The notes beneath the pieces were generated by a model. It ran no database searches and was not told the DNA's origin. It saw only the letters and a list, made by a program, of their open reading frames with translations. The translations under genes and the position numbers were made by a program. DNA of 63,980 nt, filler included, from Hausera hauseri (lineage: Eukaryota): the NCBI GenBank assembly GCA_046269625.1. It is 11 parts of 11 records of this genome, joined end to end, with 100 filler letters (N's around TTAATTAATTAA, not from the genome) between each part and the next. Parts side by side here need not be neighbours in the genome. Positions count along the whole stretch, not along the records: positions 1 to 5,988 come from JBJURY010157756.1; 10 more parts are not named here. One strand, 5' to 3'. This document shows, in pieces, positions 1 to 29,783 of the stretch (its first letter is position 1; the number at the start of each line of letters is the position of its first letter).

Positions 1-14
1 ATCGCGCCATGTAG

Positions 15-532
15 ATGGTGATGGACGACACCCGCTTTCAAGCAAAATTGGAATCGTTACTTGGCGCTAACCACTATCAAAGAGTAACTTCAGAAATATT
101 ATATGAGATTTGGGGAAAATTTTTAATTTTCGGACAAGCCGCATCTGGATTTCTAGCTATCTACCTTTTAGTCCAATTAGTAAAAGCAGTAATCCAAGCC
201 ATCATAAACGGATATGAAATATTCACATTAACAGGGTTTTCCTGTAAAATTTTGACTGCAATTACCACACCATTTGGAAAAATGACGTGGAACGCCACGT
301 CGGGTACTATAACCGCAAACGACGAGGGAGGCCCTCGATTCTGTACAAACGCAAAAACAAGAAAATAATAACTCGGAAAGATGATTCAGATGATGACGAG
401 CCTAAGGGAGGAGAAAAGAGTTCTAGAAGTAAGATGCACAAGATGTATTCAGTGACAAACGCGCCAATACCCAACATGCCACCAACTGCGCCAATATATG
501 AGAACTGTGACCAGAAAGAAGTTATATCTTAA
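15..532 (+). pseudogene. C-terminus (membrane-proximal, TM, cytoplasmic tail) of a chuvirus-like class III fusion glycoprotein, frameshifted near 285
   Basis: IWGKFLIFGQAASGFLAIYLLVQLVKAVIQAIINGYEIFTLTGFSCKILTAI fits the W..FL.FG..SAG..GI..I...IK..I...I.GY......G[WF]S..LL.A pattern I recall for chuviral-type glycoproteins; a basic tail with PPTAP follows in the next frame. Confidence 0.7.
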
Positions 533-848
533 ATGTCCGACATCTACAGCAAACCCGTTAACTATGAAGACCCTTATGAAAAAACGAAACAATATGTAGT
601 AGTACGGAAAATGAATGTCGCCAAACAAGGACTAACAGAAAACGATCACGAGATATTGTACTTGAAAAGGATACCCCGTAAGTCAGTAATCTGGGCGAAT
701 CCGAAAATACTTTCGATCCCAGGTCTGCTACCTCGAGAATCGCTCATCAACCGTCGTGTCCACAAAATAGCGGATAATAATTTATACCAAAATAAAGAAT
801 TGAGACAACTAAGGGAAAATATCATTTCATCACCGGCAATAACGATAA

Positions 849-1260
849 ATGGACACAGTCTCTACTGTAAAACAGTCAACATCAAATTGTTATGAAGCAG
901 TAGTAGAGGGAAGACCCTTCGCTAAAATATACATTGAAGACTGGGAAGTATACGCCTTAATCGACACAGGATCAGAAAAGTCGTTTGTAAAATACGAATC
1001 AATACCAATCACGCTACGCAATCAACTATGCCCACCATTATCATCAGACCCTGGCAGCATAGGAGCACTTGGGCAAGTATCGAAGCCAAAATTTAAATAG
1101 ACGCCCACCGTTTATATGATGGGCCAAGCACTTCAACACGAATCTGCAATAATGGACCAATTAACAGACGATGTAGTACTGGGTTGTGACATATTAAAAC
1201 AGATACCAGGCATGGCAATTGATGTGCATAACGAGAAATAAATTGATCTTGAACTAATTA
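849..1260 (+). pseudogene. Retropepsin (aspartic protease) of Gypsy copy 1
   Basis: GRPFAKIYIEDWEVYALIDTGSEKSFV, then past a stop ...DVVLGCDIL. Confidence 0.85.
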
Positions 1261-1530
1261 AAGGAACAAAAATAATGAAAGAAAAGAAATCGGGCGAAGT
1301 ATGAATTCCAGTAGACGAGGATATTCCGCGCAGAACTGAAATGATAATTTTTGCGCAGATTCGTTAAGATGAAGATCTACCGGTATATTTCGAACCTCAA
1401 GAAAATATTGATCCAAACTTCATGCTTATTAATACTTTATGCAGAGTAGTGACGGGACGAATACCTATTAATTAGTGAACAATGCGCCAACTCCAGTGAA
1501 ACTGCACGCTGTCACTACTTTAGGTCACAC

Positions 1531-2630
1531 TTGCATAGTGTCGGCAATAACAATAGAAAACAACCATACAAGTGCACAGAATTCCAACCTCACGTCAAAA
1601 CCACATTTTTTCCTAAGGCTTATTGCAAGTTCTATGAATTATTATGCACATACAGTTCAATAATTGCACAAAACGAGGAAAACATAGGTAGAGCAAAAGC
1701 CCTGAAACTAACAATTCCAATAAGAAAGAAACTTGGCTCGAACGACAAAATGGATCTAGAAAAACAGAAAATGCCAAAGTGGTATTCACCTCCTCATTCA
1801 TTGAGGCCAGAGATAAATAAAGAGGTAGAGCGAATGTTAAAGGCCGATATAATTCGACCAAGCTACCGAACATGGTACTCACCTATAATAATTGCTAAAA
1901 AGAAGGGAACTACGAAACATAGATTTTGTATCGATTACAGGGCATTAAAAACGCTAACGATGAAAGACTCGTTCCCCCTACCGTTATTAAAGGAAGCTTT
2001 AGATAGATCATCGGGAGCAAAATGGTTTACAACTCTCGAATTACAATCGGGATACTGGCAAGTAGAAATTGAAGAAAAATATCGATATAAAACAGCATTT
2101 AAAACACACGATCGTGTATACAAATTTAATTTTATGCCTTTTGGCATCACCAGAGGACCAGCTATTTTTACCAGAATTATGAACAAGATGCTTATGGGAC
2201 TTGATCATGCATTCGCGTACTTAGAAAACGTAATGATAGCATCAAAAACAGAAGACGAACACTTAAAGGATATTGAAGATACAATCATGCGACTAGATCA
2301 AGCAGGATTAAAACTAAATCCAAAGAAATGTAAATTGGCACAGAACGCAGTATCATACCTCAGACATATAGTCGGAGAAGGAGGATTTAAACCAGATAAA
2401 TCATTGCTAAATAAAATATCTGATTGTATGGAACCGCAGAACCAAAAAGACTTAAAACACTGGTTGGGCCTATGTGGGTATTATGCCACTTACGTACCGG
2501 ATAATTCGAAAATTAACGCACCACTTTATCGACTACACTAAAAAGGAATTAAGTGGAGATGGACGGAAGTGGAGCAAAAAGCCTTCGACGAAATGAAGAA
2601 AATCTTTACAAGTGAACCCGTTCTGAAGAA
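1531..2630 (+). pseudogene. Reverse transcriptase of Gypsy copy 1 (RNase H apparently deleted after about 2625)
   Basis: WYSPIIIAKKK..HRFCIDYRAL..DSFPLP..SGYWQ..MPFG..AYLENVMI..WLGLCGYY; the paralog on contig 4 keeps an RNase H that is missing here. Confidence 0.92.
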
Positions 2631-2829
2631 ATTACCACAGTAAAAAGGCCGCAACTCAAACAACTGGTTGAACGACAAAGAACTCTAATATTGGACAAGA
2701 CGATTAGAATTGCATTTGAACAAGCTAAAGACAAGGTTATTTAGCAAATTATAGAGTTTGTACAAAACGATAAAATACCAAAGGGACGACAACTCAAGAA
2801 ACACCTACAGAAACACGGGCATAAATAGC

Positions 2830-3890
2830 GCACATCAAACCAAGATAACATCCTATATTACGAACAAAAAGAAAAAGGCTAATAGTTATTCCGAAAGTAG
2901 TACGAATCAAAGTACTCATGGCCGAACACGACTCATATTTAGCTGGACACATGTCCTGGAAAAAGACATTAGAAACAATATTTAATAAATAATATTGGCC
3001 AAGCATTTATATCGATATAAAAAAGTGGATAAGTGTTTGCTAAGTTTGCGTAACAAAGCAAAAGAAAACAAAAGGCTACGTAGCAGAATTAAGGCCCATA
3101 AATGTACCAGACAGGCCCATGCAAGCTATGCCCATGGATATAGCAGGATCCTTGGCTAAAACTTACAAAAATAACAGATATATTCTAACATGCGTGGATC
3201 AATTAACGCACTTCGTCGAACTGGTGGCACTATTAGATCAGAAGACGCGGTGGTAAGGAAAATTATCCGCAGATACGGACCACCAGAGCAAATCTTAACG
3301 GATAGATGAAGGAACTTCACGAGTGAATTATTCGAAAAAACAACCAAGATATTTGAAATCGAGCGTTTAACCACTACGAATGAACGCAACAGTCATTCGT
3401 ATACTATCAACAGTAGTAGCAAAGGATCAAAAGGATTTGGATGAATTCCTAGAAGGGAGACAGTTTGTGATCAATACGACCCCACATCCAGCAACAGGAT
3501 TCACCATTCTTTATGATGTATGGACGAGAAGCAATTTTACCTACGGATTTGGGTATGACACCATATAAAAAGAACCTCAAGGATCTGGAGCAAAACTTTG
3601 CTGAAATCTTACAGACAAGGTTGCAAAAGTGTTGTGAAGTTGCAAAAACATTATCACTCAAATACCAGGAACAATTTAAAAAACAATATGATAAAAAGGC
3701 TAAACTTTATGATCTAAAAAAAGGTAATTAAGTTTATATCCACTATCCAGTCGCGAAGAAAGGCACATCCTTGAAATTAACTCGTAACGGAAGAGGATGA
3801 CATGAAATCGACCGCACAACGCCAACCACGGTCTATATTAACAAAAACGGTAAAGATGAAGCCGTGTCAATCCAAAGAATAGTTTAGACA
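2830..3890 (+). pseudogene. Integrase of Gypsy copy 1
   Basis: EHDSYLAGHMSW..KYYWPS..C..C zinc finger, MDIAG, YGPPEQILTD, MMYGREAILPTD; multiple stops and frameshifts. Confidence 0.88.
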
Positions 3891-3959
3891 GATATAAGAC
3901 CAGCCAAACGCTACAATTTAAGACAGAGAGAAGCCAAGACATCGACAGTTGTCACCAGA

Positions 3960-5381
3960 CCGGTATCTTACGCACAGATAATAGTAGCCTTATCGCTGAC
4001 TGCTGTTTTAACACCCAAGTCTAACGCCCAATGGTGGGTCGACGAAACTTCGTTGAGCAATATATATGGAATCCGGAAAACCGGAGTAAAACCTTTGCCA
4101 CCAAAGGAGGGAACTTCAGAACACAAAGCAGAACAAAAAGACGGAAAATTTTTACTAGCAATAAAATTACATTATTTTTTACCAGAAACCCCATATGTCG
4201 GGTTTAGGATACCTGAACCATATGAAGGGCAAATCCAGATACTATTCCAGGACCTATTAAACCAAGCCAAGTCTGAATGTAAATTCGAATCAGGAGACGA
4301 TACAATTTGCTGCAAAGTAGAATACGGATACTCTTACGTTCTTAGATATCGTTCATATCTGTTGAACTGCAATGAAATACGCGCCGAAATAAAATTCAAT
4401 TCACATCTAGTTATACCACAAACTTATGGAGACTACCTTAATATAGAGTTAGAAGATATGCTCCAGTCCATTGACCCATTAAAACGGATGGTAGAGGAAA
4501 ATATAGCTAGTATAACAGAAAACCAAAAGTATAGCTATATCCAAATAAACATAAAGGGGCGGCTAAATAAAGGAGAAGTAATCACGATTCAATTCATAAA
4601 AGAGGACAAATCAGGTGATAGCCAACAATACTGTCAAATTGACGCAGAAAGATCAAATAAGTGTTGCAAGTTACATCAAAAACATAAATATAGACTTAGA
4701 CTAGATTTGTATAAAGTTCGACCAAGCCAGCCAAGTATCTTCTTATGACGTTACCAATTGGAAAATCTAATCCAAGAAGCTCTGCCTCAAATAACGACCA
4801 GTAGAATTACGAATACAAAATTAAATGTGACTATTTCAACTTCCACCAAACTCCTCCAGGGAAGTAGATTACCTAAGAAGAATCTAGAAATGATTCCTAT
4901 AAAATATTGGACACTACAACATGAAATATCGTTCATTGTGGAAGAAGCACTTAATTAAGACGTAGAAATAAGCTGCCAAACATTACACAATAATCAGAAA
5001 GTGACATTGGCTAATGGAAGCTATCGAATCAAATGTACCGGTTTGAAACAGAAAACGGACTACATAATACAAATGAGTGCAAAGAACAAACAAAGTAGAA
5101 CGTTTACGGTACGGACCCTAAACGAGCTTGTCTTAACGAAACCCTTAATTAACGAGAAAACGAAAGACAAAATTATGACTAACGTTAAAACGAAAAATTT
5201 AACTAAATGGACAACTTTGCCATTAATATCGATTATTGGAACGTCAACATTTGCTCTCATAACTTTGATTGCGTTTTGTCGATTGATTACCAAAAACGGT
5301 TTTAATATGCGTCATAAAATCACCGAGAGGGAATTAAGAGTAATGGTACCACAGGATGAAATCAATGATGGGGTAACCTGA
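3960..5381 (+). pseudogene. Type I membrane protein (internal signal peptide, about 3 FN3-like repeats, TM, short tail), in frame with the integrase C-terminus
   Basis: ORFs at 3513, 4053, 4758 and 5001 share one frame, broken only by point stops; SP-like YAQIIVALSLTAVLTPKSNA|QW; FN3-like CTGLKQKTDYIIQMSAKN; TM LPLISIIGTSTFALITLIAFCRL. Confidence 0.75.
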
Positions 5382-5480
5382 CAATTACAGGTCGGGTTAT
5401 TCCACCATCTAACAAAGAATTGGTTCAAATTTAGAACAATACTTTGTTATAAGATTAGCCCTTACTTTTTGTTTTTCAGA

Positions 5481-5988
5481 ATGGTAAGTTTGGATAGCCG
5501 ACTTAGCATCGACGAATATTTACGGAAACAGGCCACAGTATTCATCCCAAATTCCAAATCTATCTACAGACGCATAAACGATGCATTACAAGCAAAAACT
5601 TAATCGAAATTACAAAAGTCAGCGAAATTCCAAATGAGCTAAAAGGCATTACAGAGGAGAACCGAGCAGTTTACCTATACGCAATGCGTGAAGACAATCA
5701 AGCCAAAGCTTTATTCCCTAAAAGAATTGATCCGAAACCGACCAGCTAAAATACAGGATATATATATCCACGTAGCCGATGGAAAAATATATTATAGGAT
5801 AGAAAACCAAACTTGGAACTCAAATGAAGTGCATCAATATCGGTTCAGTACATTCAAAATAAGCGAAAGAGGACTAGAACCTATTAACTACGGCCTTGAC
5901 TTTCGAGTAGCATCCCTTCCTGTCAAACTTATGTTCGAAGTGACCTAAAAAGAGAACTGCAACCTAGGCTTGCCAGTTCTAAAGTTTG
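5481..5988 (+). pseudogene. Accessory ORF (N-terminal part), homologous to 20989-21437 and 18278-19399
   Basis: SIDEYLRKQATVF..SIYRRI..KVSEIPNELKGITEENRAVYLYAMR..DIYIHVADGKIYYR aligns by eye with the contig 4 ORF; frameshifted. Confidence 0.7.
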
Positions 5989-6088: not shown

Positions 6089-6285
6089 CAAAACGGCTCC
6101 AGGGGCCCACCCAGCCTCAAAAATGGGTACCAGAGAAATTCTCTGGGAAAGTAAAGGCGGCCTGGTGTTATGCTGACAACATAACCCAATTACGTGCCGA
6201 TGTCTAGGAAAATACGTGGACACTAACTCCACAATTACCTATACGCCTTCTTAGGCGTGTACAATGGACTTTACTTACTTAGATT
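6089..6285 (+). mobile_element. SINE, 3' part (same family as 6430-6709)
   Basis: Close match to 6523-6709 (caaaacggctccagg..cacccagcctcaaaaat..gaaagtaaaggcggcctgg..ggactttactta). Confidence 0.75.
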
Positions 6286-6329
6286 TACTCTACTGGTAGT
6301 GGCACGTGACATGTTACACACATCAGACC

Positions 6330-7011
6330 AAACGAACTAGCAGCTTTTGTCACAAACACAGATCCCAGTGATAAACCAGGTTCACGCACGTTGTGTGAGG
6401 CTTTATTATGATGGGCTAAGTACATTTCAGGAGCCACGGTGGCGTTGTGGTTAGTGCGGACATCTGCCGATCGTGTGGTTATGGGTTCAATACCAGTTGT
6501 GGGCACTGAATTTTTATTAAATCAAAACGGCTCCAGGAGCCACCCAGCCTCAAAAATAGGTACTGGAGCAATTCTCTGCGAAAGTAAAGGCGGCCTGGCG
6601 TTATGCTGACAACATAGCCCAATTATGTGCAGATGTCTAGGAAAATATGTGGAACTAACTCCACATTTACCTATACGCCTGCTTAGGCGTGTAAATGGAC
6701 TTTACTTAGGTACATTTCATTATTTGGACTCGTTTGGCTTACCCCCTTACATGCAGACATTGTGAATTTTATTCAACGAAATTCTAATAAACTCTATGTA
6801 TACAATTCCAAGATTTTTTAGTAATACTTGTGGGGTGTACGCCATTTATTTCATACTTATTAAAACCAGAGGCTTATCTACGAAGCGCGTCCTTGCAGCA
6901 TTTTCAAATCATAGACAATATGTTAATGATAGACAATATATTAATGACCTTATTATCATACGATTAGTGCGATTTTGGCTATGTAAACACAGATTTGACG
7001 TCTATAAATAG
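6330..7011 (+). pseudogene. Polinton/Maverick adenain-like cysteine protease, interrupted by the SINE
   Basis: AAFVTNTDPSDKPG before the SINE; HYLDSFGLPP and SNTCGVYAIYFI..RGLS..AFS..ND after it. Confidence 0.8.
6430..6709 (+). mobile_element. tRNA-derived SINE with 10-bp target-site duplication, inserted in a Polinton protease gene
   Basis: A box tggcgttgtgg, B box ggttcaatacc, ttac-type tail; TSD gtacatttca at 6420-6429 and 6710-6719. Confidence 0.85.
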
Positions 7012-15545: not shown

Positions 15546-15751
15546 TAATCAATAATCGTAAGAACAAAACGAATCGCTGGAGGTGCTCAAGATTCATCCA
15601 TGTCACTGGATGGAATATACGAAATCAAGTGTTATGTATTCNNNNNNNNNNNNNNNNNNNNNNNNNNNNNNNNNNNNNNNNNNNNTTAATTAATTAANNN
15701 NNNNNNNNNNNNNNNNNNNNNNNNNNNNNNNNNNNNNNNNNTAAATATATT

Positions 15752-16480
15752 TTGGTATTTATTGATTATTTCACCAGATGGGTGGTGGCTTTACCAATGC
15801 CTGATATAAGGGCTGACACAATTGCTGAAAGATTTGTGGAAAATATAGTATTCAATTACGGAGCTCCAAGAATTCTGACAGGGACTGTAATGCAGTCCAT
15901 ATATGATATATTGAAAATATTAAAGTTACGGTCAACGCCCGCACATCCAAAGAATAATGGAATGGTTGAAAGGTATATTGGAGACCTAAAAGGTAAATTA
16001 CAAACAGTAGTAAATACTAGGCAGGATGACTGGGACGAATACATCAATGCATGTGTTTTCGTCAATCGGACATCAGTCCATGAGGCGACTAAAGAAACAC
16101 CCTTTTATATAATGTATTTGCGAGATGCAAGACTACCAATCGATTTAGATTTCAACGTAAAAACAATTTCACACTTAATGGAAATAGAAGACTATAAACA
16201 AGTAATGCAAGAACACCTCCAGTTGGCATACAAAATGATTGGTGATAACCAGAAAGATTATAAATTAAAATATAAGAAATACTATGACCAAAAGACGAAG
16301 CAGCCTAGAATCAAGATAGGCGACCAGGTGATGTTGCATTCTCCAACAATTAAAAAGGGTAAAACGTCTAAATTAGACAGACCATAAAAAGGACCATATG
16401 AGGTAGAAAAAATAGACCTACCGAATATTTGCCTAAAGAAAAATAATACTTCCGTAAAAGTACATATTAACAGATGTAAG
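15752..16480 (+). pseudogene. Gypsy integrase core + GPY/F C-terminus
   Basis: FIDYFTRW, YGAPRIL, HPKNNGMVER, ETPFYIMYLRD, KLDRP*KGPY..VHINRCK. Confidence 0.92.
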
Positions 16481-16579
16481 CCTGCTGCTAAGGAGAGTAA
16501 GTTAAGAGAAGGTAAAAAAGAGTTAGTAAACAGCATCAGTGAGAAGGAAATCGAAAAGGACTCAACGAATAAACTGCCT

Positions 16580-17965
16580 ATAAAGAAGATATTATTACTA
16601 GGCATCATTCTATTACTTCCCATAGTAGTAGGACAAATGTCGGATCAAAAAGTTCAAAAAGCCAAAATACGACATGCTACAGCCATAAACGAGGATCTAT
16701 GGTTAAAAATCTTAAAGTATCACATAACATATTCCATGCAAGGTCAAAAATGCATTACCTGGTATACTACGAGACAAATACCTGGTGATTATATCATAGA
16801 GATACAAATAACCCCAGTCAACGGTCACGAAAGAAACTCTGATGAGAGATATAATAGTTGCACCCTACGTTCAGTGACTAATAAAACGCAATGTCCAATA
16901 GACACTTCAGGGACACATAGGGTATACCTAACGCTTATAAAAAAGAAAGGAGGTTATTATTATAGTTTACATACTAAATTTTACAGGTATATACGAGTTC
17001 CCAATAGACAGGGAATGAATGAAACACTGCTTGATGAAATAATACTCGCTCAGAAAAAAATAAGATCAATAGAATTTAAAAGTGGACGAAGTTGTCTCGA
17101 AATAAGAAGTATGATAGAATTAGAATATATTCGATGGATAACGATATCCATAAAAGAAATAGGAGGCAAACAAAGATTATTGAAATGTGAATTAACCGAT
17201 GAACAGCAACAAGTTTGCTGCAACGTAACAAGAGGTAAAATATGCGAAGTAAAATATACTTTGTCACGAAAGGAACACGGAAAGCTCAAGAATAGAAGAC
17301 AGAAAAGGTCCGACAATGTTTATACGATATAACAATCAAAATGAGTATGATGATATACGAAGAAGAATCACGGTACCACCTGTGCAAGTCTCGCCTGATA
17401 CCAAGGAGATGACTATTCTAATTAAACCATATGCTTCTTATTACCGCCAAAAACGTTCTATCTGGGATAACGTAACTATTATAGCACTCCCACGGCACTA
17501 ATCATCTCTCTTAGACCAGATCTCGACTTCATAAAAATTAAATTTGTCTGTAAAAGACAAGACACCACAGTAGCAAAAGGAATAATAACTCCTGATGATC
17601 TGATAGTGCTGTGTGCGGCTTTAGAGACTAATACGAAATATACAATTATGTTACAATTATTAGACGTTAACGATAAAATAACCTCTACAAAAGTAATGTC
17701 TCCAATCACAAAAGGTACTAGAATCGAATCACCATACAGATTAAATACAATCATGAATAAGACAACTAAAAAGCCATTACGAGCAGGATATAAGTATTCC
17801 CGCCTAGAAATAATCATAATAGGTTCAATAACCCCTGTGGTCTTAATAATAATATTGTTAATAGTGAGTAAAATCTTATATTGGCGATACAAACGAAGAA
17901 GAAGCTGGGTCAGAATTGATATGCGAAATCTAGCGAATCCGTTAGATACGGACAACCCCAGCTGA
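16580..17965 (+). pseudogene. Type I membrane protein with signal peptide, FN3-like repeats, two RQKR furin-type sites and TM; starts in frame with integrase
   Basis: KKILLLGIILLLPIVVG|Q in the integrase frame; CCNVTRGKICEVKY; CAALETNTKYTIML; TM IIIIGSITPVVLIIILLIVSKILYW then RYKRRR; internal frameshifts near 17320-17500. Confidence 0.75.
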
Positions 17966-18277
17966 CGATTAATGTTGAGGATTGCAATATACGCAACCCT
18001 CAGTAAAGAGATAACCAAACAACATCGAGTTATCTTATACGTTAAAAATAGTTATAACGAAACCACAATGATTACCTCCCTCAGTTGTTTGATAACCGTT
18101 GTGTTGTATTTAAGTATCGTGATAAATGACGTTTTGACTCTTATTTTTACAGTCTCAGCTACAACGTTCCACTAGATCCAGTCTATTACTCATTCCAAAC
18201 ACTGGTACGGTAACGTAAAGAACCATATAATTAACGCCAATCCGTCCAATCAATACTACGTATCACACAATGATAAT

Positions 18278-19399
18278 GTGACCAGTTTAAACTACCCTCA
18301 GATTCAACAAATCCTTAACAATATAAAAGGATATAGTATGGCTAACCGATCTTTCGCCATAATGCAAATTACTAAAGCCACATCATTTCTCCTAGAGGAT
18401 ATAATAATCCTACCAGATCGATTCCATTCTATGAATTTGTACGGCGTTGTGGGTCAAATTCAGATAAAAACAACAGACAAAAAAACATCAATTAAAGGAG
18501 ATCTAATCTATGTCGATCCTGAACACGGTCTAGCTTTCGATTACACCTTCCTTAAAGACAATCTAATTAAAATTTGTTCGTGCACAAACCGGGTAATATT
18601 AGCAATGAAAATAATTAAACTAAAAAAATTCTTTCCCAGTCTGCCAGAAGGAAGATGCTTCAATCTCCCGGAGCCTGACTACGTCAAGTACAAAAGTATC
18701 CCTTATAGAAGATTGGACAAAGTTACAGATAAAGACATGGTCATAGCCGCCGTAAACTTGGCCTATGACCAATGGAACCAGCTTCAACCTATCGAAGCCT
18801 CGGTTCTAACAATGAATGGAGACACCTTGCTGTATGGAACCATTACCCCAAGGCAGCGTATTAACAATTTCGATACGCACATAACCGGCCTCACAGAGTC
18901 TAATATCAATAACCAAATCGATCCAGTGGATTTTTACCGAAAAGTGACAGAAGCAATAACTGACAAGGATGTTATCGGAGCCAACGTGGTTGAAATTGTT
19001 ACCAACCATTTCAAGTGTCCAATCCGACGGATAGCTGGAGTACGTGATATATTATATCACGAGGATGTTATCCGCCGGTATCAGTTAACAACTAAGACTT
19101 ATAAAGAATTGGCCCGCAAATTCTATTACACAAAGGGCTTTTCTCTACGAATCACTGCCTTAGCGCAGTGCTACCAATCTATCTACAAACAATTAAAGTG
19201 GTCAGATGAGCTCATCAACCAAAGCACGGCCTCCGATACGGTGCGAACAGCACCCACGACATCGCAATGTGGAAGGAAACGTAGAATTCAACTTGATGAA
19301 ACAGTCGTACTGGATGATAAAGTATACAAGCCCGAAGCCATCCGATATAAATCAACAACAGGAAAATATATCCATATGCCCTTGTCGTTCGACCAGTGA
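18278..19399 (+). CDS. Accessory protein: unknown N-terminal domain + degenerate DEDDh (ISG20/REX4-like) exonuclease domain; frame extends upstream to 17966 with one TAG at 18173
   Basis: Long open frame; ASVLTMNGDTLLYGTITPRQRINNFDTHITGLTESNI..KVTEAITDKDVIGANV..VRDI resembles the REX4/ISG20 core but lacks ExoI DxE and GH..D. Confidence 0.65.
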   Translation: MTSLNYPQIQQILNNIKGYSMANRSFAIMQITKATSFLLEDIIILPDRFHSMNLYGVVGQIQIKTTDKKTSIKGDLIYVDPEHGLAFDYTFLKDNLIKICSCTNRVILAMKIIKLKKFFPSLPEGRCFNLPEPDYVKYKSIPYRRLDKVTDKDMVIAAVNLAYDQWNQLQPIEASVLTMNGDTLLYGTITPRQRINNFDTHITGLTESNINNQIDPVDFYRKVTEAITDKDVIGANVVEIVTNHFKCPIRRIAGVRDILYHEDVIRRYQLTTKTYKELARKFYYTKGFSLRITALAQCYQSIYKQLKWSDELINQSTASDTVRTAPTTSQCGRKRRIQLDETVVLDDKVYKPEAIRYKSTTGKYIHMPLSFDQ

Positions 19400-20988
19400 T
19401 AAATTCGGGGCAATTTATTGAAGCCCTCGTCTAATTCTACAAACCATTTGGAACTTTGCCATTTTAAATGGATCATATACGATCACATAGTACAATATTT
19501 GATCACGCAATATATTATTGACTTCTATATATAATATACATTTAACATTGATAACTGAAAAATGATACGTGATTCTTCTTACGTGATACGTGATTTTCAT
19601 ATGACTTTAATGGAATTTTTTGAGTGAAAGTTGTTTTATTTATTTATAAAGGAATTATTGTATGTACTATATAAACCGTGATTTTCTTCATCACAACACA
19701 ATTTTTTTGCCATTACTGATGACATCACGTAAGTGTAATAATTTAATTATTACGTCTGTTTGTTAAATTGTCAATTTTTCTTTGGTAACTGTACGTGTAA
19801 TCAAATAGAGTTATTTATTTTATTTAAAAGGTTGTTGTGCTTTCCTTAAGTAATAAAAGTAATTAAGTAACTCAATTAAATCGGATAAATTCTTCGTCCA
19901 GGTTAAAGTTACCTGACGAAGGCCAAATTAACTCCTAAATAACGTATAAGATATTAATCCGTAAGTAAGTAATTTATTAACGTTACAACTATTCACCTTG
20001 CAACATATTACCTCTGCACAGCTAGGTAAGGACCGTTACAAACTTCCTCAAGGACAAAAGAAAGAATTGTCATACTCATTAATTAGTAAACCAAGACAAT
20101 AATTGTTATTATTAATGAGTATGGAACATTATTCGTGTAGGCTTAGTTTTGAAGTCGAACTCACTACAAGGCTAAGACTATCCCGACCTCCAACTGTTAA
20201 AGTAAATTTTAAAAGAATCCCAAATTTAGCATTTGTAATTTGATATAACACAACTTTTTTGATTATTATTCTCTGATTGGGTTAAATACATAATTCATTA
20301 ATGTAAAGAAGTTCAAGCAGAAACAAATATATTAAAATTTTATAAACAGGTTTTCATGGCAAATAATTGCAAAGTCAATATTTTTAGTCTGTTTACTACA
20401 TTGAATGAAACTTTATAAGCAGATCCGATTGATAAAGTCGGACAAATTTGAATCGTTTAAATTTCTGTTGACTTTGGCAATTGTGCAAAATAAGAAAATG
20501 TCACCCAGGATATTGATACTTGTTTTAAAGTATGAATCATTGTTACTTATATTTGAATAAATTAGTGCAATAAATATCTTTGTCCTTTAATAAAATGTTC
20601 CCTTAACTTTTAGTGTTTTACTTAAAGAAGTATCATTTATTTGTCTAATCATAACGGAGGTATATTCACTTTGTTTTTGAAAAGTCGAATATGTTTGGAA
20701 TAGTATCACATGTTTAAAAAAATAAGAAAACAATGGATATGGTTTTTACATATGTTCCAAGGGAACATTTCTAACTGTCACACAATGGTTTTTATAAGGA
20801 ATAGTCAGATACCCGCCTTCGCAAAATTCAGCAGTCAAGTATGAAATTGACATACTTTGGTATAATTATACATACAATACAAACGAGCNNNNNNNNNNNN
20901 NNNNNNNNNNNNNNNNNNNNNNNNNNNNNNNNTTAATTAATTAANNNNNNNNNNNNNNNNNNNNNNNNNNNNNNNNNNNNNNNNNNNN

Positions 20989-21437
20989 GCGGCAATCCTC
21001 AATTCCATTTCATTTTCGCATAAGCTTTTACGACACAACTTGAAGGTACTGAACTTGTATTTTCGTCCCTTGTTTGAGCTCCAGTTTTTTCCAACTAATC
21101 TGTAGTAAACCTCTCCTTCAGCCAAATGTACATACACATCGCATTGAGGTCTTATTTCGGATTTCAGTAATTTTTTTAAGTTGTATGATCGGGCATCTTC
21201 GTTGTTTCTCATGGCGTATAATAGCAGAACTCTATTTCCTTCCACGATTCCTTTCAAATTGTTAGGGATTTTGTCTACTTGATTATATTCCACTAGTGTT
21301 CTATTCTGCAGTTCTATGTGGACTTGACGATATATAGCGTTGGAATTATGTGTTATTATAGTCGCACTTTCCTGTAAGAATTCGTCGATGTCGGTCTGGT
21401 CACAGCATTTATTTCGATTTGCCATCTTACTTACCAA
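20989..21437 (-). CDS. Accessory ORF (partial; runs off contig end)
   Basis: Open frame, same frame as the upstream membrane protein; homologous to 5481-5988 and to the start of 18278-19399 (Y.Q...I.NN.KG....NR). Confidence 0.7.
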
Positions 21438-21536
21438 TCTGAAATAAAAGTAAATAAGTTTATTCCTAGGACAGAGTCGTATTTCAGAATGAAATATTTT
21501 TACTGTCTGATGACAGAATAACCCGACCTGTAATTG

Positions 21537-22910
21537 TCAGGTTATTTTATCATACGAATCACTTTGGTGTACCACCCTTATTTCTCCGTCATTAATTTTG
21601 CGCTGTTTTTTACAGTTTTTGGTAATTATATAAAATGGCGCCATTAATATTAATAAGACGAACACTGACATCACAATGATTAATAAAATAGGTAGAGTTG
21701 TTAATACGAATGGTTTTTGTGTTGTTGTAGTGGTAATTGTATTTTCTATGTCTCGATTTCTTTGCGAATCTGGGTAAATATTTTCCGTTAAAGTGTGTAA
21801 GGTGATTGTCCGATTTTGTTTTCCCGCTGCGTTAATTTGTATTATATACTCTATCTGAGATTTCAGTGATTTACATTCAGTCTGTTGCGTATTCTTTATA
21901 AGTATTACATTTTGTCTACTATATAAGGTTCGATAGTTTATCTCTATATCGTAGTTTAATTCTTCCTCGACGAAGAATATTACCTTGTTTCGCTGCAATA
22001 AGTATTTAATAGGAATACCTTCCGGTTGCTTTCTGGGTCTTTCACTAGTCATGATGATTTTAGTAGCAATACTAGACTTTGTCGTCGTTTCAAATGGGAT
22101 TTTTCAATTTGTCTTCCTAAACGATATCCTCTTAGGTATATATTTGGCTAATTTGGTCTGACCTTATATAGTAGAACTGTATCTCGTAACTGTATCCTTG
22201 GGTATTTTACAGCACGGTTTTGAGTTCCACTGGCTGATAGCGCAGTATTTTGCTGGCGGATTTGTTTCTTCAGACGGTATGAATCAAACCGATATCTGAT
22301 AGGATTTAGTTAAACTTGTTCTAGTTTTAATTTGAATACATGCATTTTTTAAATCCTTGGAGACTTCAACTATATTTTCATTTAATAACTTAATTTGAGG
22401 ATCAGTACTTTGAACTATGTCGGATAATTTTACTCTGTCCATTAGGACTTGCTTGGGCATAGCTATTTCGATCAGTGGTCGTATCTCTGCTCGAATGATC
22501 TCATAGGGGTAATAATACATAAGTATTACATATCTGTATGTTTGTCCGAAATCTAGTTAACAACATTTTTTATAAACTCCATATCCAAACTAACAATCTT
22601 TTATCCTTTCACTATTTCGATCGGTAAACTTTATACGAATTTTCATATATTCTCTTGTAGCCTTGTCGGTTTGAAACCAGATAAAGGGCTTTTTCTAACC
22701 TGCATCATATGCTTTCATTGTTTTTATATTTTCCTTCCAGGTGTTTTTGTTCCTCTTTGATTTTGGCTTCCCTTCCCTTTTGGCAATTGCATATATATAT
22801 CTACTAAACTGGATTCGCTTTCATCCCACTACTACGCTTTAGTCTTAGGAACATAAGAAGCGATTAATGATAGTGTTAAGATTATCTGTACGTAAGATAT
22901 TGGCCTATAA
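21537..22910 (-). pseudogene. Signal peptide / FN3-like / TM membrane protein, counterpart of 3960-5381
   Basis: RPISYVQIILTLSLIASYVPKTKA; IPIKY..FFVEEELNYDIEI; CKSLKSQIEYIIQINAAG; TTLPILLIIVMSVFVLLILMAPF. Confidence 0.75.
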
Positions 22911-22999
22911 ATTATACAAGATGTCCTTGTTTTTTTCTTTCCTTCACTTGGGTTAAAACTCTGATTTTTGTATCGCAAATTATAACGTCTTCCCTGTCG

Positions 23000-24130
23000 T
23001 ATTCCTGTTTTAACAACTCTGCATGGATACTACCGCTTCTTTGCCATTTTTATTAATGTAAACAGTGATTGGTGTGGTTCGAAAAAGTTCGTAGGGCCCT
23101 CGTCCGGTACGAGTAAGTTTTAACGATGTACCTTTCTTTTGATTGGATAGTGCACATAGATCCAGTTTCCTTCTCCTAAATCATGAGGTTTGGCCTTCTT
23201 ATCATACTGTTACTTAAACTGCTCTTGATACTCGAGAGTGAGCTTCTTAGCTATATCCCAACATCTTTGTAATCTCGTTTTTAGAACTTCTGCGAAGTTC
23301 GGCTCTAAATCTTCTGGATTAATGTGATACGGAGTCATTCCTAAGTCCGTAGGTAATACTGCTTCACGTCCATACATCATAAAAAATGGTGTAAATCCTG
23401 TGACGGGATGTGGGGTTATACTGATATCAAATTGCGTTCCTTCTAAGAATTTGTCCCAATCTTTTGATCCTTTGCGACTACCGTCGACAAGACTCGCAGA
23501 ACTGTTGCATTCATAATTTCGATCATTCCGTTGCACTGAGGGTGATATGAAGTAGTGGTCAAGCGTTCGATCTCAAAGATCTTGGAAATTTTATTAAATA
23601 ACTCACTCGTAAAATTTCTTCCTCTATCGATTAATATTTGATCAGGGGGTCCGTATCTACAGAAAACTTTTCTTACCACTGCATCTGCTAAAGTTTCTGC
23701 CTTCTGATCGATTAGTGTTATTAGTTCAACGAAGTGAGTTAAGCGATCCACACACGTTAGAATATATTTGATATTTTTGTGAGTCGTAGGTAAGGGTCCT
23801 ACTATATCCATAGACATAGCGTGCTTAGGCTTGTCTGGTATATTGATTGGTTTTAGTTCTGCTATATAATTTTTCGCCTTCTTTTGTTTTGTCGCACAGA
23901 CTTCACAAGCGTCCACCCAGTTTTTCACGTCAATATAAATACTTGGCCAGTAATACTTATTCAATATTCTTTTTAATGTTTTCTTCCATGACATATGTAC
24001 AGCTAAATGTGAATCATGTTCGGCCATTTATACTTCTGTTCGTAATCCCTTTGGAATAACTACTAGTTTCCGTCCCTTTCGTTCGTAATATAAAATATTG
24101 TCTTGATTCGATGCATAGTATTTATGCCCG
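23000..24130 (-). pseudogene. Gypsy integrase
   Basis: HDSHLAVH..YYWP..CEVC; MDIVGPLP; CVDRLTHF; DRGRNFTS; YHPQCNG; TGFTPFFMMYGRE. Confidence 0.92.
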
Positions 24131-24329
24131 TGTATTTGTATATGTTTCTTTAGCTGGCGTCATTTTGGTATTTCATCTCGCTCGGAAAATTTGATTACTT
24201 TTTTAATAACTTTATCTCTAGCTTGTTCTGCAGAAAATTTGATTGTTTTATTCAGCGTTAAGGTCCGTTGTCGTTCTATTAATTCTTCGAGTTGTGCCTT
24301 CTTCATAGTCGTAATCGTAATTGTCTTTG

Positions 24330-25274
24330 TCTTAAGTCTTGTTAACGCATCTGCGTCGATGTGTTTATTTCTGGGTTTATATTGAAATTCCATATTGTAT
24401 CGGGAGATTTTCTTGATCCATCAAGTTAGTCTACATGTCAGGTTACCGTCCCGTCCTTTTAACGTTGTAAGAGCCTTGTGATCGGTAACTACGCTAATTT
24501 TCTGTCCGTAGAAATAGACATTAAAATGCCTTTAAGCTTCTTTCACGGCTAATGTCCTCCATATGCGATTGGATGTTCCAATTCTTCATCGTCGCGTTTC
24601 TGAGCCAATTCACAGCCAATTCCTTCTTTACTTGCGTATGTTTTAATTATAAACGGTAAATTAAAATCAGGATATCTTAGCACTGATTCATTGGTTAAAA
24701 TTTTCTTCATTTCATCGAACGCCCTTTGTTCGATATCGGTCCATCTCCACTTGATTCCCTTTTTCAATAAACGATATAATGGTGCGTTTATTTTCGATTT
24801 GTCTGCCACATAAGTGGCGGAGTATCCACATAAGCCTAACCAATGTCTTATTTCCTTCTGATTTTGGGGCTCCATACAATCTGATATTTTGCTCAATAAG
24901 GATTTATCTGGTTTCGATCCTCCTTCTCCGACTATATGCCCTAGATAAGATACAGCTTTCTGTGCCCATTTACATTTCCTGGGATTTAGTTTCAATTCTG
25001 CCTGTTCTAACCTCATAAGAGTATTTTCGATGTCTTTTAGGTGTTCTTCTGTTTTCGATGCCATCACTACATTGTCTTAGTAGGCGAACGCGTGATCGAG
25101 ACCCATTAACATTTTATTCATCATTCTGGTGAAGATAGCTGGGCCGGTTGTTATACCGAACGTATTATGTTAAATTCGTAAACTGCGTCGTGCGTTTTAT
25201 ATTCTGTTTTATAACAATCGTTTCCTTCAATTTCTACTTGCCAGTATCCGAATTGTAAATCCAGCGTGGTAAAC
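24330..25274 (-). pseudogene. RT (C-terminal half) and RNase H
   Basis: LKLNPRKC..VSYLGHIV..WLGLCGY..LRYPDFNLPFIIKTYAS..HPIAY..VTDHKAL..ADALTR. Confidence 0.9.
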
Positions 25275-25374: not shown

Positions 25375-28300
25375 AGACTTTCTGTCCCACGACAATTTAC
25401 TTGCAGACTGGAAACGATGTTTCTTAAAGAGCGAAAATAATTTTAATCAAATGAGCAGCATTTCGGTGACCACCCAGGCGATCGCTTCCACCAAGTCAAT
25501 ACTAAAGAAAACGACTTCCGATTTAAATTATTTTTATAATCCTTCATTATATAGAATTTTTTATTACGGCAACAAATACGATATTGTCAACTGCGTGGCA
25601 CCTATACTGATAATACAGTTGCCAACACAATCTTCAACTCGAACATCCTGCACCTAATACAACCTGGTCACAACACCTCGTCTACAACTCATACCTCAAC
25701 TGCATCCAGTCAGGATAAATCGACACCATCTGAAAAGTTTTTATCCTTGCCCGCTGACTTACAGCAATATATTTCGTCTTTCTGTACACGTCTATTGCAA
25801 AAGGACAAATCATTCGTACCACCTAAATCCACTTTTTATCACATAGTAACAGCACATCAAAGACCAATACGTCAAAAGATCCGCCCGCTATCGTCTCGTC
25901 GCAGACAGACAGTGGAGGCTGAGTTTCTCGAACTGGAAAAATCAGGAAAAATCAGAAGATCCAAATCCCCGTAGTCTTCAACACTGCATGTGGTTCCAAA
26001 AAAGATGGTACCTTTCGCCCATTCGGTGATTACTGCCAACTCAACATCATAACAACAATGGATGCCTATCCTTTACCATTAATCAACGGTATCCTTCACA
26101 GGCTCCATGGTTCGACCATTTTTTTCCTGCATTGATTTGCACAAAGCATACCGCCAAATTCCAGTGGCCCCAGCAGACATTCCGAAAACGGCTGTCATTA
26201 CACCTTTCGGCCTTTTTGTATACCTCTTCATGCTTTTTGGACTCCGCAGCGCTTCCCAGACCTTCCAAAGTCATATTGATACAGTTCTCTCAGGTTCAGA
26301 TTTTTGCTTATCCCTATACCGATGACATCCTAATTGCTCCATCTTCCTCGAAACAACACTCCGAGCGCGTATGTTTAATCTTCCAGCGCTTGCACCAAAA
26401 TAGCTTGCAAGTTAATTTCTGCAAATGCTCTTTTTTCAACATAAGGTCAACTTCCTAGGACATGTTATTAGCTTCTCCGGATATTCACCTCAGCCAGAGC
26501 GCTTCACACAGCTCAAAAACATACAGCTGCCACGTACATCAACAGAAATGCGTTCTTCCCTCGGAATTTTGCACTTTATTTATAAGTATATTCCACACTG
26601 CTCCACTCTAACCGCTTTATTTGCATCACTAAGCTCTGGCAAAAAAACAGCCTATTTTATGGACCGCCAAACTAGTTAACGCTTTCGATCACCTCAAAGA
26701 CAAACTAAAAACCGTGGAAATCCTGGCCTATCCCGACTCCCATGCAGAACTCTTCTTAACCACGGATGCATCCACAACACTTGCAGGTGCTGTCCTCCAC
26801 CAAGTCAAAAATGGATCCCATGAGCCATTAAAATTCTTTTCTCGAAAATTTACGGCACAAGAGCAAAGATATTCCACCTTTGACAGAGAGTTGCTTGCAA
26901 TGGTCCATACCGTAAAACACTTTAAGCCTCTGTTAACCGCACGAACCTTTACAATACAAACGGACCACATGCTCTTGCTTTAAATTCTCACCATGAAATC
27001 GCCTTTTCCACGTAAGGAGAGATAAATATCGTATTTGTCCACATTTTCTTTTGAAATTAAGCACCTAAGCGGAGTCGACAATTTAGTAGCTGACTTTTTG
27101 TCCTGATCGGTCAGCTCGATTGATTTCACACCAATTTTCCCTCAATCCAAACTTCAACAAAACCAGCCACCTGCTGACGTCCTTAAATCTTTTAAATTGT
27201 GCAAACCCATTGACGGTGTGGCCTTTGACACCTCCAAACCTAATAATCCTAAAGTCATCCTTTCTGAATCGCTTCAAAAAAAGCTTTCAGCAGCATCCAT
27301 TCGTTGCATCATCCCGGTACCAAGGCCACTTTTCGCCTCATACAACGCCAAGTAGTATGGTCGTCGATGCGCTCTGACCTGCAGGCATGGGTTAGGCAGT
27401 ATGTGGCATGCCAAAAATGCAAAAATTACTAAGTACTTAAAGCCACCACTATATCATTTTCCCTGCACGTCTCGTTTTGAATCTGTTCACATTGACCTTG
27501 TAGACCCACTACCTTTAGACAAGGGCCATCAGTTCATCCTCACAATGATGGACCATTCCTCGCGATGGCCAAAGGCTGTCCCACTTCGGAGCACCAACTC
27601 AGAAACAGTCGCAGACGTTTTCATCCGCACTTGGATCAGTAGGTTTGGATCACCTAGCCACATCATTTAGGACCAAGGTCCACAGTTCGAATCCAACCTG
27701 TTTAAAGCTCTTGTCAATCGATTGGGAATTAACCACATTCACACGTCACCAAATCATCCTCAATCAAATGGCCTTCTCGAACGCTTTAGCCGAATGATGA
27801 AAACGTCTCTCAAAATCCTTGCTGAGTCCAATCGCAGTTGGACCACACTCCTTCCGTACGTTCTGCTTGGCTGGCAGAAGGCACCATCTACGTCTACAAG
27901 TCACTTACATGCAGAAGCATTATTTGGTACTTCTATCAGACCATTAATCGAGCTGGCTGAGCTGGACAATATTCCTACGGACGAAACCATACAAGCGGAT
28001 CAGAGACACTTCGTTGACATCAGCAAAGACTCATTTTGTAGACTACTACACGGAAATAAACCTTACATACCCGACGATTTACATACTGTCAAGTTTGTAT
28101 GGCTAAAGAATCAGACGCCATGTGGTTTTCAAACTCAGTATGTTGACCCTTACAAAGTAATTCGTTTACACTCTCACAACATCATCATTGTCAAAGACGA
28201 CAAAGAAATAAAAGTCCACATCAACAACGCTAAGCCGGTTTTCTTTATTTACGATACGTCTTCCATCGAAAGCACTCCTCCACCAACATCTTTACACGAC

Positions 28301-28447
28301 GCGCAGCAATCCAACAATTCACCTTCCATCTCTGCTCAATTCTTTAACCCAATTTCCTCCACGTCTTCTCTCAAGATTTCTACTTCAATTTTTTCTGACA
28401 GTTCATCCCCTTTTTCCCCATCCGATTTTGCACCCCAAGTATTTTAA
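25375..28447 (+). mobile_element. Decayed Gypsy pol (RT-RH-IN), a second family, with a Ser/Pro-rich tail
   Basis: IDLHKAYRQIPV, YTDDILIA, TTDAS, YSTFDRELLA, QTDH, HIDLVDPLP, WISRFGSP, HPQSNGLLERF. Confidence 0.92.
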
Positions 28448-28925
28448 CACCTCCTCCACCCCCTCCTGTTACTAGACTTCTTCCGCCAAACACCACTCCG
28501 ACTTCACCAATCGCTCCATCTTCCTGCTTTTTTCCGCTTTATCCCTCTTCGCCGTCTTTTCTCTCTCTCTCTCTCTCTTTCTTCTTCCACCTTCCTCATC
28601 TTCAGCGCTTGCTTCCTCCCTCTCTCCTCACACACACCGTCTTTTACTTCTTTCATCTCCGCTTCGCAACTTCCTTCTCTCTCTACTCCTATCCCTATCT
28701 CTCTTCCTCTCTGTACTACTACCTCTGTTTCATCCTCTATTTCTACCCTTTCACCTAATACAATTTCAATTTCTACGTCACCTTTCGCCTGTCCTCCTTC
28801 ATCCGCCACTACACCTCTTTCCATTCCTTTGTCTTTCAACACTGTGTTGAACACCTTCAACCGTCTGTCTCCAACAACCTCTCTTCCTCCTTAACCTTCT
28901 TATTCTCTTTATTCTGACTCGTCAT
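28440..28925. repeat. Pyrimidine (CT)-rich low-complexity tract
   Basis: Strong C/T bias with (CT)n runs. Confidence 0.8.
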
Positions 28926-29783
28926 CACACGACACGTCATTCACAACAAAATCCGACAATGTTTTTCCGCAAACTTTAAACTCTGCAAGCAAACACATCG
29001 CATGAAGACAAAACACGCAGTCACATTTAGTAAGTATAGCAGGGAAAAATCAGTAGAAGGCACCGAACGTCTTGTCCACACTAAGATCAGCTGATACAGA
29101 CACTTTTTCGTTTAGCGATTTTTTCTTTCCGTCTATTTCGATGTTTATAGCTTTCACTTTGCCACGGGGGGTGTGATGCCGCGGCCGTGGGGGCGCTCGA
29201 GCTCCTCGCTGGAGTAGCTGGAGGTCAAATCTCAAATTTCTTTCATTGCAATCTCAACATTCTAATCTGTTTCAAGAGTCTCAATCAGTGGAAATTGCAA
29301 TTTCAATATTTCAATCCATTTCAGAAATCTCAAGAACTACGTCAGAGGATTATCTATGTATATTGTTGTCTATACGGATACTATAACTAGAAAATTGGTG
29401 TGCATGAACTGGAGCGATTTTTGACAAATTGAACTGGTGAAGTTGAGCCCACAATGTTTTATTATTTGTTTGTGTTTTGTTCGTGTAAAGCATTATGAAT
29501 TGATTAATGAAAATATGTAAATGTATCATTTTGCGACAATCCTTGGAATAACAATCTTGGAATGAGACGATAATTGCAGGTGGATGAAGTTTCACATCGA
29601 CTGAACTCATAAATATTTATCACGGTAATTTAATAACAACAGGGTAATCGAAAACGTTTTGATTGTTTTGTGGATTTTAAATAAGACTGATATATTATTT
29701 AAGTTGATGTATGGTGATATGTATAGAGATCGTGTCTGATATAAAAACTGATGTAAATAGATAAATCGATTGTAATTTCTAGT

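Follow-up and report, generated by a model that had tools for sequence, protein, structure and literature searches.

What does a family of Ty3/gypsy-type long terminal repeat (LTR) retroelements in Hausera hauseri encode behind its integrase, and could it be a fusogen? The stretch analysed here (the window) spans 63,980 nt, filler included, in which 11 contigs of assembly GCA_046269625.1 are joined, and copies of the element lie on contigs 1, 3, and 4 (copies 1, 3, and 4; Table 1). An earlier note, made from the sequence alone, had proposed that three divergent copies share a post-integrase membrane protein (the cargo) with a fibronectin type III (FN3)-like ectodomain, followed by a further accessory open reading frame (ORF). 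We conclude that the cargo is almost certainly not a fusogen, as that note had held: the model of the ectodomain matches tandem FN3 proteins, and a recognised fusogen is encoded upstream of pol.

The ectodomain is predicted to consist of tandem FN3 domains

A profile built from the three copies was searched against 1.84 billion representative proteins and returned five matches: P0006, an uninterrupted 479-aa homologue of the cargo; P0007, a 189-aa C-terminal piece of it; two FN3-repeat proteins that match module 3 (E 5e-6 and 2e-4); and P0008 (E 3e-7), which was dropped as a low-complexity repeat artefact. A word-index homologue search found nothing for the copy 1 cargo and only P0007 for the cargo alignment. 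A PDB sequence search with the cargo profile gave no match at E 10, Atlas gave no usable match for the copy 3 ectodomain, and the viral and metagenome contigs searched held no related locus.

AlphaFold, run on P0006 with a 6-row alignment, predicted three beta domains (pLDDT 70-88; mean pLDDT 61.7 and pTM 0.37), the second and third joined by a disordered, Thr-rich, mucin-like linker, and then a stalk and a transmembrane (TM) helix. A single-sequence model of the copy 1 ectodomain was discarded (pLDDT 34). All 42 rows listed by Foldseek against PDB contain FN3 domains, and the best (E 9e-13) covers ~340 columns over the three domains; among the matches listed are fibronectin 10-12 (E 9e-13), contactin FN1-3, gp130 D4-6, and Tie2, and the viral structure matches listed are mostly FN3/Ig-repeat proteins. 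VIA-align gave a best Z of 10.4 for the P0006 model. Domain 3 alone aligned to single FN3 domains with Z 9.4-9.6 and rmsd 2.2-2.6 over 76-79 residues (overall rmsd of its superpositions, 2.2-2.9), and it shows the seven-stranded sandwich with the Leu-x5-Tyr EF/F motif that is expected of FN3. No fusogen appears in the listed structure-match rows, which by themselves leave room for a family outside those lists, although the positive FN3 match speaks against one. The FN3-type ectodomain claimed in the earlier note is thus borne out by the P0006 model, by Foldseek, and by the VIA alignment of domain 3, and the fold of a known Env, named there as what would speak against the claim, did not appear.

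Several points weigh against this reading. The model is that of P0006, 32% identical to copy 1, and not of a copy in the window, and domains 1 and 2 draw their FN3 support solely from multi-domain alignments. The Pfam fn3 profile reaches E 0.1 on the cargo, with 13.3 and 13.0 bits against a cut-off of 25, and global TM-scores stay low (0.13-0.20), since the model does not fix how the domains are oriented to one another. The modelled cargo is accordingly a match to a diverged FN3 fold that lies below profile-level membership. Since the predicted ectodomain comprises three tandem FN3 domains, the cargo appears receptor-like rather than fusogenic.

A recognised fusogen lies upstream of pol

The start of contig 1 encodes the membrane-proximal part of a chuvirus/gB-type Env, which matches PF24664 (Monjiviricetes_fusion; E 2e-15, 56 bits against a cut-off of 27, profile positions 517-594 of 653). 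The gene order on this contig is env, protease (PR), reverse transcriptase (RT), (RNase H, RH), integrase (IN), cargo, and accessory ORF; a gB/chuvirus-type env thus stands directly before pol, as in gB-type errantiviruses. The separate upstream fusogen gene strengthens the view that the cargo is not one. Against this, env before the protease reaches into view in one of the three copies, copy 1, and the linkage of env and cargo is seen on a single contig. The broken coding-like stretch between env and protease, which gave no Pfam match at E 0.01, is probably an env tail. Its acidic patch and Tyr motifs could fit an extended env tail or a leader of Pol, and a tetrapeptide near position 480 resembles a late domain of the Tsg101 type.

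With a signal peptide and a TM helix after integrase, the cargo occupies the usual place of Env, which would fit an unrecognised fusogen, that is, a second Env. We consider this highly improbable, as the predicted fold is three separate FN3 sandwiches and the upstream fusogen is already recognised. Furthermore, no furin site (R-x-[K/R]-R) was found in copy 1, P0006, or P0007, and hydropathy revealed no internal segment like a fusion peptide, the signal peptide and the TM helix being the sole hydrophobic segments. The cargo therefore lacks the combination that marks F-type Env, a furin site with a hydrophobic fusion peptide after it. Copy 3 has one R-x-[K/R]-R motif, which adjoins its out-of-frame stretch.

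Three broken copies share one architecture

The 3' portions of related LTR elements lie on contigs 1, 3, and 4. In all three copies the order is integrase, internal signal peptide, ectodomain, TM helix, short tail, stop, and accessory ORF, and each cargo comprises a Cys-patterned ectodomain of ~370-400 residues, one TM helix, and a tail of 31-34 residues. We have little doubt that this shared architecture, which the earlier note had described, is real. It includes the in-frame accessory ORF after the cargo stop, which is present in every copy. Copies 1 and 4 are clearly homologous along their whole shared length (tblastn aligns 4230-5876 with 22643-21021 across the cargo, 32% over 565 columns). 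Copy 3 is remote, with 16% identity in the alignment, yet it is collinear, and the Cys and Leu-x5-Tyr positions are conserved. It was found weakly by tblastn with P0006 (E 7e-4) and by a profile built without copy 3 (E 0.013, positions 47-444), where it was the best non-self match among 66 frames; the accessory N-domain joins it to copies 1 and 4 (E 5.5e-4 and 2.9e-4). Its position, its collinearity, and two separate weak links make its homology very likely.

None of the three copies is intact, as stops or frameshifts interrupt every one. The frame of copy 1 contains five stops besides that of the cargo (3729, 3798, 3885, 4746, and 4956), and copy 3 has a single integrase stop at 16385 and an out-of-frame stretch at ~17300-17450 in the cargo. 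The earlier note had traced integrase and signal peptide in frame in copies 1 and 3; they do share a frame in both, but in copy 1 that frame is not open, since stop 3885 precedes the signal peptide.

The copy 1 signal peptide has small residues at -3/-1 and Gln at +1, which are matched in P0006 and copy 3. As no Met lies between the integrase tail and the signal segment in any copy, no start codon specific to the cargo is apparent. From hydropathy, the -3/-1 residues, and the missing Met, it is likely that signal peptidase would free the cargo, and we think it probable that the cargo is made at the end of the Pol polyprotein. A point to the contrary is that P0006, a protein-only record, starts with Met residues just upstream of its signal segment. 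No long Pol-cargo fusion stands among the five profile matches, which neither supports nor excludes a polyprotein.

The pol genes follow the Ty3/gypsy order, with PR, RT, and IN in copy 1 and RT, RH, and IN in copy 4. The best PDB matches of the copy 4 RT are Ty3 RT (E 4e-17) and a caulimovirus-type "enzymatic polyprotein" (1e-16). Copies 1 and 4 align in two blastn blocks (2025-2632 with 25274-24672, and 2631-3919 with 24315-22977); the RNase H region is absent from copy 1 after ~2632, where it is ~356 nt shorter than copy 4, and copy 1 is therefore a dead copy. The contigs stop short of the LTRs, the primer-binding site, the polypurine tract, and gag; one purine run of at least 11 nt lies in the 3' flank of copy 3. 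At 40573-43700 (+), on a contig without pol, lies a degraded ORF that resembles gag; it encodes a CCHC knuckle (E 5e-4) as well as a long extension that is charged and coiled-coil-like, and it might be the 5' part of this family or of another.

The cargo diverges fast but is constrained near the membrane

The earlier note had called the cargo much more diverged than RT and IN, and the comparison of copies 1 and 4 agrees: amino acid identity is 82% in RT and 68-70% in IN, compared with 32% in FN3 domains 1 and 2, 45% in domain 3, and 46% in the TM helix and tail. The ratio of nonsynonymous to synonymous divergence (pN/pS) is 0.12 in RT, 0.42 in FN3 domain 3, and 0.52-0.53 in the TM helix and tail, with synonymous sites near saturation. 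Codon-shuffled partner controls had a median pN/pS of 0.72-0.82. Domain 3 and the TM helix and tail lie under the 2.5% bound of these controls (0.59) and near 1 in shifted frames; both parts are clearly constrained by purifying selection. The accessory blocks show 40-50% identity and pN/pS 0.41-0.62. The dN/dS comparison that the earlier note had proposed thus indicates constraint near the membrane, while two values are borderline and count against a wider claim: FN3 domains 1 and 2 (0.65-0.67, where 0.65 equals the null 2.5% bound) and the last accessory block (0.62 against a bound of 0.59).

The cargo could also be a captured host FN3 gene carried as a functionless passenger, as the breakage of every copy in the window and the borderline selection on domains 1 and 2 would allow. 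This is very unlikely given the purifying selection on domain 3 and the TM helix and tail, the retention of architecture and Cys pattern down to 16-19% identity, and the existence of the uninterrupted P0006.

Among the sequencing runs screened, one (X1, share 0.39), possibly the source itself, was listed as containing the sequence, and no RNA run was. Contigs from X1 placed 13,050 pieces over all 30 bins. Their summed depth is 10-44 thousand over much of env and pol, 212-881 over 4001-5200, and 11-13 thousand over 5201-5600, and one X1 contig skips 4078-5177. Contig depth cannot rank parts of a gene, and these values serve as a hint alone that the family is large and that the stop and hairpin region is its most conserved 3' part.

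The cargo stop has a readthrough-type context

In the alignment, copies 1 and 4, P0006, and P0007 all terminate the cargo at one column, and the tail of copy 3 is of similar length. The stop reads TGA CAA TTA CAG in copies 1 and 4 and TGA CGA TTA ATG in copy 3. The pattern stop-C[A/G]A-TTA-xxG occurs at four of the 6,619 stop triplets on both strands of the window, and three of these are the cargo stops; the previously established consensus stop-CAR-YYA occurs at 12 of the 6,619. All three copies show the sequence features of a Type I readthrough signal, a hexamer after the stop and an open in-frame continuation, with one mismatch in copy 3. In tobamoviruses the context UAG-CAA-UUA-xxG is invariant, and UGA-CAA-UUA gave 5.8-10.1% readthrough in a Venezuelan equine encephalitis virus (VEEV) reporter, as far as described in Firth et al. 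(PMC3159437).

The linker after the stop is open in frame in all three copies (no stops), compared with 1-10 stops in the other frames; shuffled linkers were open in 582, 566, and 25 of 5000 cases. Synonymous divergence in the linker is low (pS 0.38, against 0.53-0.89 elsewhere). At the cargo stop 29 of 29 nt are identical between copies 1 and 4 (blastn), within an 18-pair hairpin (fold z -5.2 and -6.0; 34 of 36 cells paired, with one compensatory pair); covariation is powerless with two sequences, as 243 of 500 shuffles reach the observed level. In copy 3 a hairpin begins 8-9 nt downstream of the stop (z -3.1). A search of 5250-5600 against Rfam gave two mir-239 matches far under the gathering score, which we took as chance.

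On this context we regard use of UGA readthrough as somewhat better than an even proposition. Several observations tell against it. The stop-C[A/G]A-TTA-xxG pattern was defined after the sites had been seen, the CGA of copy 3 falls outside the CAR-YYA consensus by one mismatch, and copies 1 and 4 are not independent evidence. Their strongest hairpin buries the stop and the hexamer and may explain the conservation in another way, and the linker pN/pS of 0.95 indicates no constraint at the protein level. In addition, the 69-codon open linker of copy 3 has a hydrophobic stretch, and the linker region of P0005, a homologue of the accessory ORF, is also hydrophobic. This region before the N-domain may act as a signal or as a second TM helix, or may simply reflect T-rich DNA; a hydrophobic linker, if read through, would place the nuclease-like domain in the lumen.

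Alternatively, splicing might yield a subgenomic mRNA for the accessory ORF, whose product would then be a free protein of the nucleus or cytosol; the UGA would be a true stop, and the hairpin would serve packaging or regulation. We hold this to be possible, though less probable than readthrough; it is independent of the role of the FN3 protein, and both processes may operate. An acceptor-like YAG ranks first of 65 in copy 1, joint first of 56 in copy 4, and, at 18152, joint fifth of 59 in copy 3; copy 1 has an in-frame ATG immediately after it, and in copy 4 the distance is 13 nt. The corresponding position of P0005 is a Met, the linker pN/pS of 0.95 fits this reading, and copy 3 and P0005 share a basic cluster like a nuclear localization signal (NLS). 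However, the acceptor score is a crude pyrimidine count, no in-frame ATG lies close to the acceptor of copy 3, and splicing leaves unexplained both the 69-codon open linker (25 of 5000 shuffles) and the readthrough-type context of all three copies, including copy 3, which lacks a stop-spanning hairpin. The conserved 29-mer was rejected as a branch point, its AG being too close and followed by further AGs. A perfect donor-like GTAAGT lies 4 nt past the acceptor-like AG in copies 1 (5479-5489, +) and 4 (21439-21429, -); a micro-exon and a coding coincidence are both possible.

The accessory ORF may end in a pseudo-nuclease

The accessory ORF gave no Pfam match at E 10, and its sole word-index homologue is P0005, which is 55% identical to the copy 3 ORF over 99%. 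The copy 3 ORF has an N-domain, a DEDDh-like region (~18698-19285), and the NLS-like basic cluster near its end; copies 1 and 4 reach their contig ends just before the DEDDh-like domain and so lack the C-terminal half. For this half, Atlas language-model features gave RNase_T 0.92 and arenavirus nucleoprotein (NP) 0.90, and the ten best families all belong to one clan. Neither copy 3 nor P0005 has the D-E-D-D-h catalytic residues where they would be expected: the motif I acidic pair is replaced by Asn and Ala and the motif II His by Ala (positions of motifs I and III follow the general DEDDh consensus). As these residues are missing in both sequences, a pseudo-nuclease is probable, and we lean slightly towards an RNA-binding one. 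Two results weaken the assignment: the Atlas value of 0.92 rests on 160 shared features, below the 170 typical of true members, and the top PDB match of the ORF, ISG20L2, is weak (E 0.045). A PDB sequence search with the single ORF gave no match at E 10. The likeness to ISG20/REX4-type DEDDh exonucleases and arenavirus NP is thus weak, in sequence as in language-model features, and here the catalytic residues are replaced.

A possible attachment partner and its alternatives

The best overall explanation, to which we would give even chances, is that the FN3 protein is an attachment or adhesion partner of the gB-type fusogen and is made with Pol; attachment or adhesion as the role of the protein, taken by itself and by analogy, we place at or just short of that. 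Attachment proteins act beside herpes gB or paramyxovirus F, and in large viruses a gB-type fusogen relies on separate proteins for receptor binding. The cargo would be translated as the end of the Pol polyprotein and cut free by signal peptidase, and co-translation with Pol would bring it into the membrane that also carries Env; its variable outer FN3 domains might there bind a host-cell molecule. A few ribosomes would read through the UGA and add the accessory N-domain and a dead DEDDh domain, which may bind the RNA of the element (tethering or shielding it) without cutting. The entire chain, namely two-component entry by a gB-type fusogen and a captured FN3 attachment glycoprotein, with a UGA-readthrough DEDDh tail that couples RNA or shields it from silencing, is doubtful as a whole.

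Tandem FN3 domains with one TM helix are likewise found in gp130 D4-6, contactin FN1-3, Tie2, interferon receptors, and cyprinid herpesvirus ORF129A, and the protein could be a decoy or modulator of a host cytokine or immune receptor (gp130/Domeless- or interferon-receptor-like). The fold matches include gp130 D4-6, IL-22R1, IFNAR1/2, IFNGR, and Tie2; domains 1 and 2 have paired Cys, the tail is below signalling size, and the outer domains diverge fast. Host-interfering domains are also described for the planarian element Burro (PMC6431247). The receptor matches, however, tie with rows for fibronectin, contactin, NCAM, and RPTP at 7-18% identity, and the fold therefore does not indicate a ligand or donor; the cargo, encoded by an LTR element, lacks a signalling domain, and the profile search found no host paralogue beyond generic FN3 repeats. 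A decoy is, in our judgement, rather unlikely. Less likely still is a block to superinfection, in which the protein would occupy or down-regulate the entry receptor: type I topology and lineage-specific outer domains fit receptor interference, but this is normally done by Env itself.

Relation to known elements

HSV/gB-type errantiviruses of GAG-ENV-POL order are described from Nematoda, Bryozoa, and Platyhelminthes (Chary and Hayashi, PMC13524379). They share the Ty3/gypsy pol and the gB/chuvirus-type env before it; the main text of that survey, which targeted gag, pol, and env, has no mention of fibronectin, exonuclease, readthrough, or accessory genes. Burro/GYPSM1, a giant planarian gypsy element, has a mononegavirus-fusion-related env between gag and pol and captured accessory domains within its polyprotein, but the extras listed for it are BIR, BCL2, MATH, ankyrin, SUMO-like, and dUTPase, with no FN3 membrane protein among them (PMC6431247). 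Copy 1 gave no dUTPase match in the part of the PR-RT stretch that was scanned. Juno and Vesta of bdelloid rotifers carry ORFs other than env downstream of pol, among them DEDD exonucleases and small TM proteins (PMC5408684). Their exonuclease is described as DEDDy/RNase D-like with intact catalytic residues, whereas the domain here is DEDDh/ISG20-like, apparently dead, and placed behind an FN3 membrane protein in an element with env. Like the tobamoviruses (PMC3159437), the soybean copia element SIRE1 (PMC2194720) has a stop followed by CAA-UUA and an in-frame downstream ORF; the stop suppression reported for SIRE1 leads from pol to an env-like ORF, and here the UGA lies between two accessory genes. 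OVEX1 (PMC2717909) proved a false lead, as the fibronectin named there is a tissue stain.

Examples are thus already known of a gB-type env placed before pol, of invertebrate gypsy elements rich in accessory genes, of DEDD cargo, and of LTR-element readthrough. The earlier note's "complex" invertebrate retrovirus-like lineage holds insofar as the element is rich in accessory genes, but such complexity has precedents (Burro, Juno/Vesta), and the novelty therefore lies in the FN3 cargo. Neither an FN3 membrane protein as LTR-element cargo nor the three-part 3' cassette was found in the literature consulted (open full text, mostly listings), which leaves out Repbase, Dfam, GyDB, and the deposits of PMC13524379, where the family could sit as plain "env". 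The FN3 protein is a candidate receptor-binding partner for a gB-type errantivirus Env, and so bears on how these viruses choose target cells, or else may be the first receptor decoy borne by a retroelement. For the annotation of transposable elements, it suggests that a signal peptide and TM helix after integrase are not always env, and the family extends the short list of accessory genes in invertebrate LTR elements by a candidate recoding site and a probable pseudo-nuclease.

Features of the element copies

Table 1. Features of the three element copies, in positions of the window.
Copy	Feature	Positions	Strand	Basis or remark
1	Contig with copy	1-5988	+	One frame from integrase C-terminal region through cargo stop (5379-5381) to 5600
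1	Env, C-terminal membrane-proximal part, chuvirus/gB-type (class III-like)	39..272	+	PF24664; truncated by contig start
1	Broken coding-like stretch, env to protease	365..895	+	Translation
1	Aspartyl protease	909..1205	+	PF00077 E 9.9e-5
1	Reverse transcriptase	1897..2361	+	PF00078 E 2.8e-28
1	Integrase (zinc finger, core, GPY/F-type tail)	2888..3950	+	PF17921 E 3.5e-14; copy 4 alignment; stops and frameshifts
1	Predicted internal signal peptide	3957..4028	+	Hydrophobic core 3972-4010; same frame as integrase tail
1	FN3-like domain 1 (Cys-rich; approximate bounds)	4179..4418	+	Aligned with P0006 ~75-160, pLDDT 72-87
1	FN3-like domain 2 (Cys-rich; approximate bounds)	4497..4727	+	Aligned with P0006 ~190-262, pLDDT ~70; Thr/Ser-rich linker with in-frame stop 4746 follows
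1	FN3 domain 3, membrane-proximal	4887..5120	+	Structure and profile matches; in-frame stop 4956
1	TM helix	5223..5279	+	Hydropathy 2.18; helix 430-457 in P0006 model; basic residues and ~33-residue tail follow
1	Conserved hairpin over cargo stop and hexamer	5365..5408	+	blastn, fold z
1	Open in-frame linker	5382..5480	+	Ends in pyrimidine tract, AG 5478-5479, then in-frame ATG 5481
1	Accessory N-domain	5481..5988	+	Aligned to copies 3, 4, and P0005; frameshifts; truncated by contig end
3	Contig with copy	15742-20888	+	Begins inside integrase; integrase and signal peptide in one frame
3	Integrase core and tail	15743..16582	+	tblastn to copies 1 and 4; rve E 0.065
3	Signal peptide (~16583-16633), three FN3-like modules, TM (17810-17866), stop (17963-17965)	16583..17965	+	Alignment, hydropathy, profile
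3	Open linker, stop 18173, 407-aa accessory ORF	17966..19399	+	P0005 homology
4	Contig with copy	20989-25274	-	Begins inside RT; frame shifts between integrase tail, signal peptide, and ectodomain
4	RT, RNase H, integrase (Ty3/gypsy order)	22907..25274	-	PF00078, PF17919 E 4e-17, PF17921, rve E 9e-13
4	Signal peptide, FN3-like ectodomain, TM (21695-21639), stop (21539-21537)	21537..22906	-	Alignment, hydropathy
4	Open linker, acceptor-like AG 21439, in-frame ATG 21425, accessory N-domain	20989..21536	-	Truncated by contig end

Other contents of the window

Ten of the 11 contigs have 32-40% GC and are full of broken transposons, and one is bacterial-like. Contig 2 has a 198-nt direct repeat (90%; 6089-6286 and 6523-6717) on both sides of a segment that resembles a tRNA or a SINE. 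On contigs 5 and 9 (25375-35904 and 49405-53937) there are two or three copies of a gypsy family without env, unrelated to the one described here and presumably Mag-like. Contig 5 also has, between its gypsy copies, two apparently intron-poor ORFs that we take to be HELZ2-like, one with an RNB domain (30697-31800, E 3.7e-23) and one with Helicase_C (32126-33265, E 5e-12). The broken ORFs at 36005-40472 (+) gave no Pfam match at E 0.001; by their motifs, they presumably belong to a protein-primed DNA polymerase B of the Maverick/Polinton or adintovirus type. A piggyBac-type transposase lies at 55057-56851 (+; PF13843 E 2e-74) beside an intron-flanked exon (~57600-57730) that we assume to be GPS2-like. 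Together with the gypsy content, these two features suggest that the host is probably an animal. The bacterial-type contig (58172-63980, 59.5% GC), whose presence means that the assembly is mixed, encodes DUF1800, DUF1501, and a phage-integrase-like ORF and carries a 97-nt inverted repeat (58174-58270 and 60982-61078).

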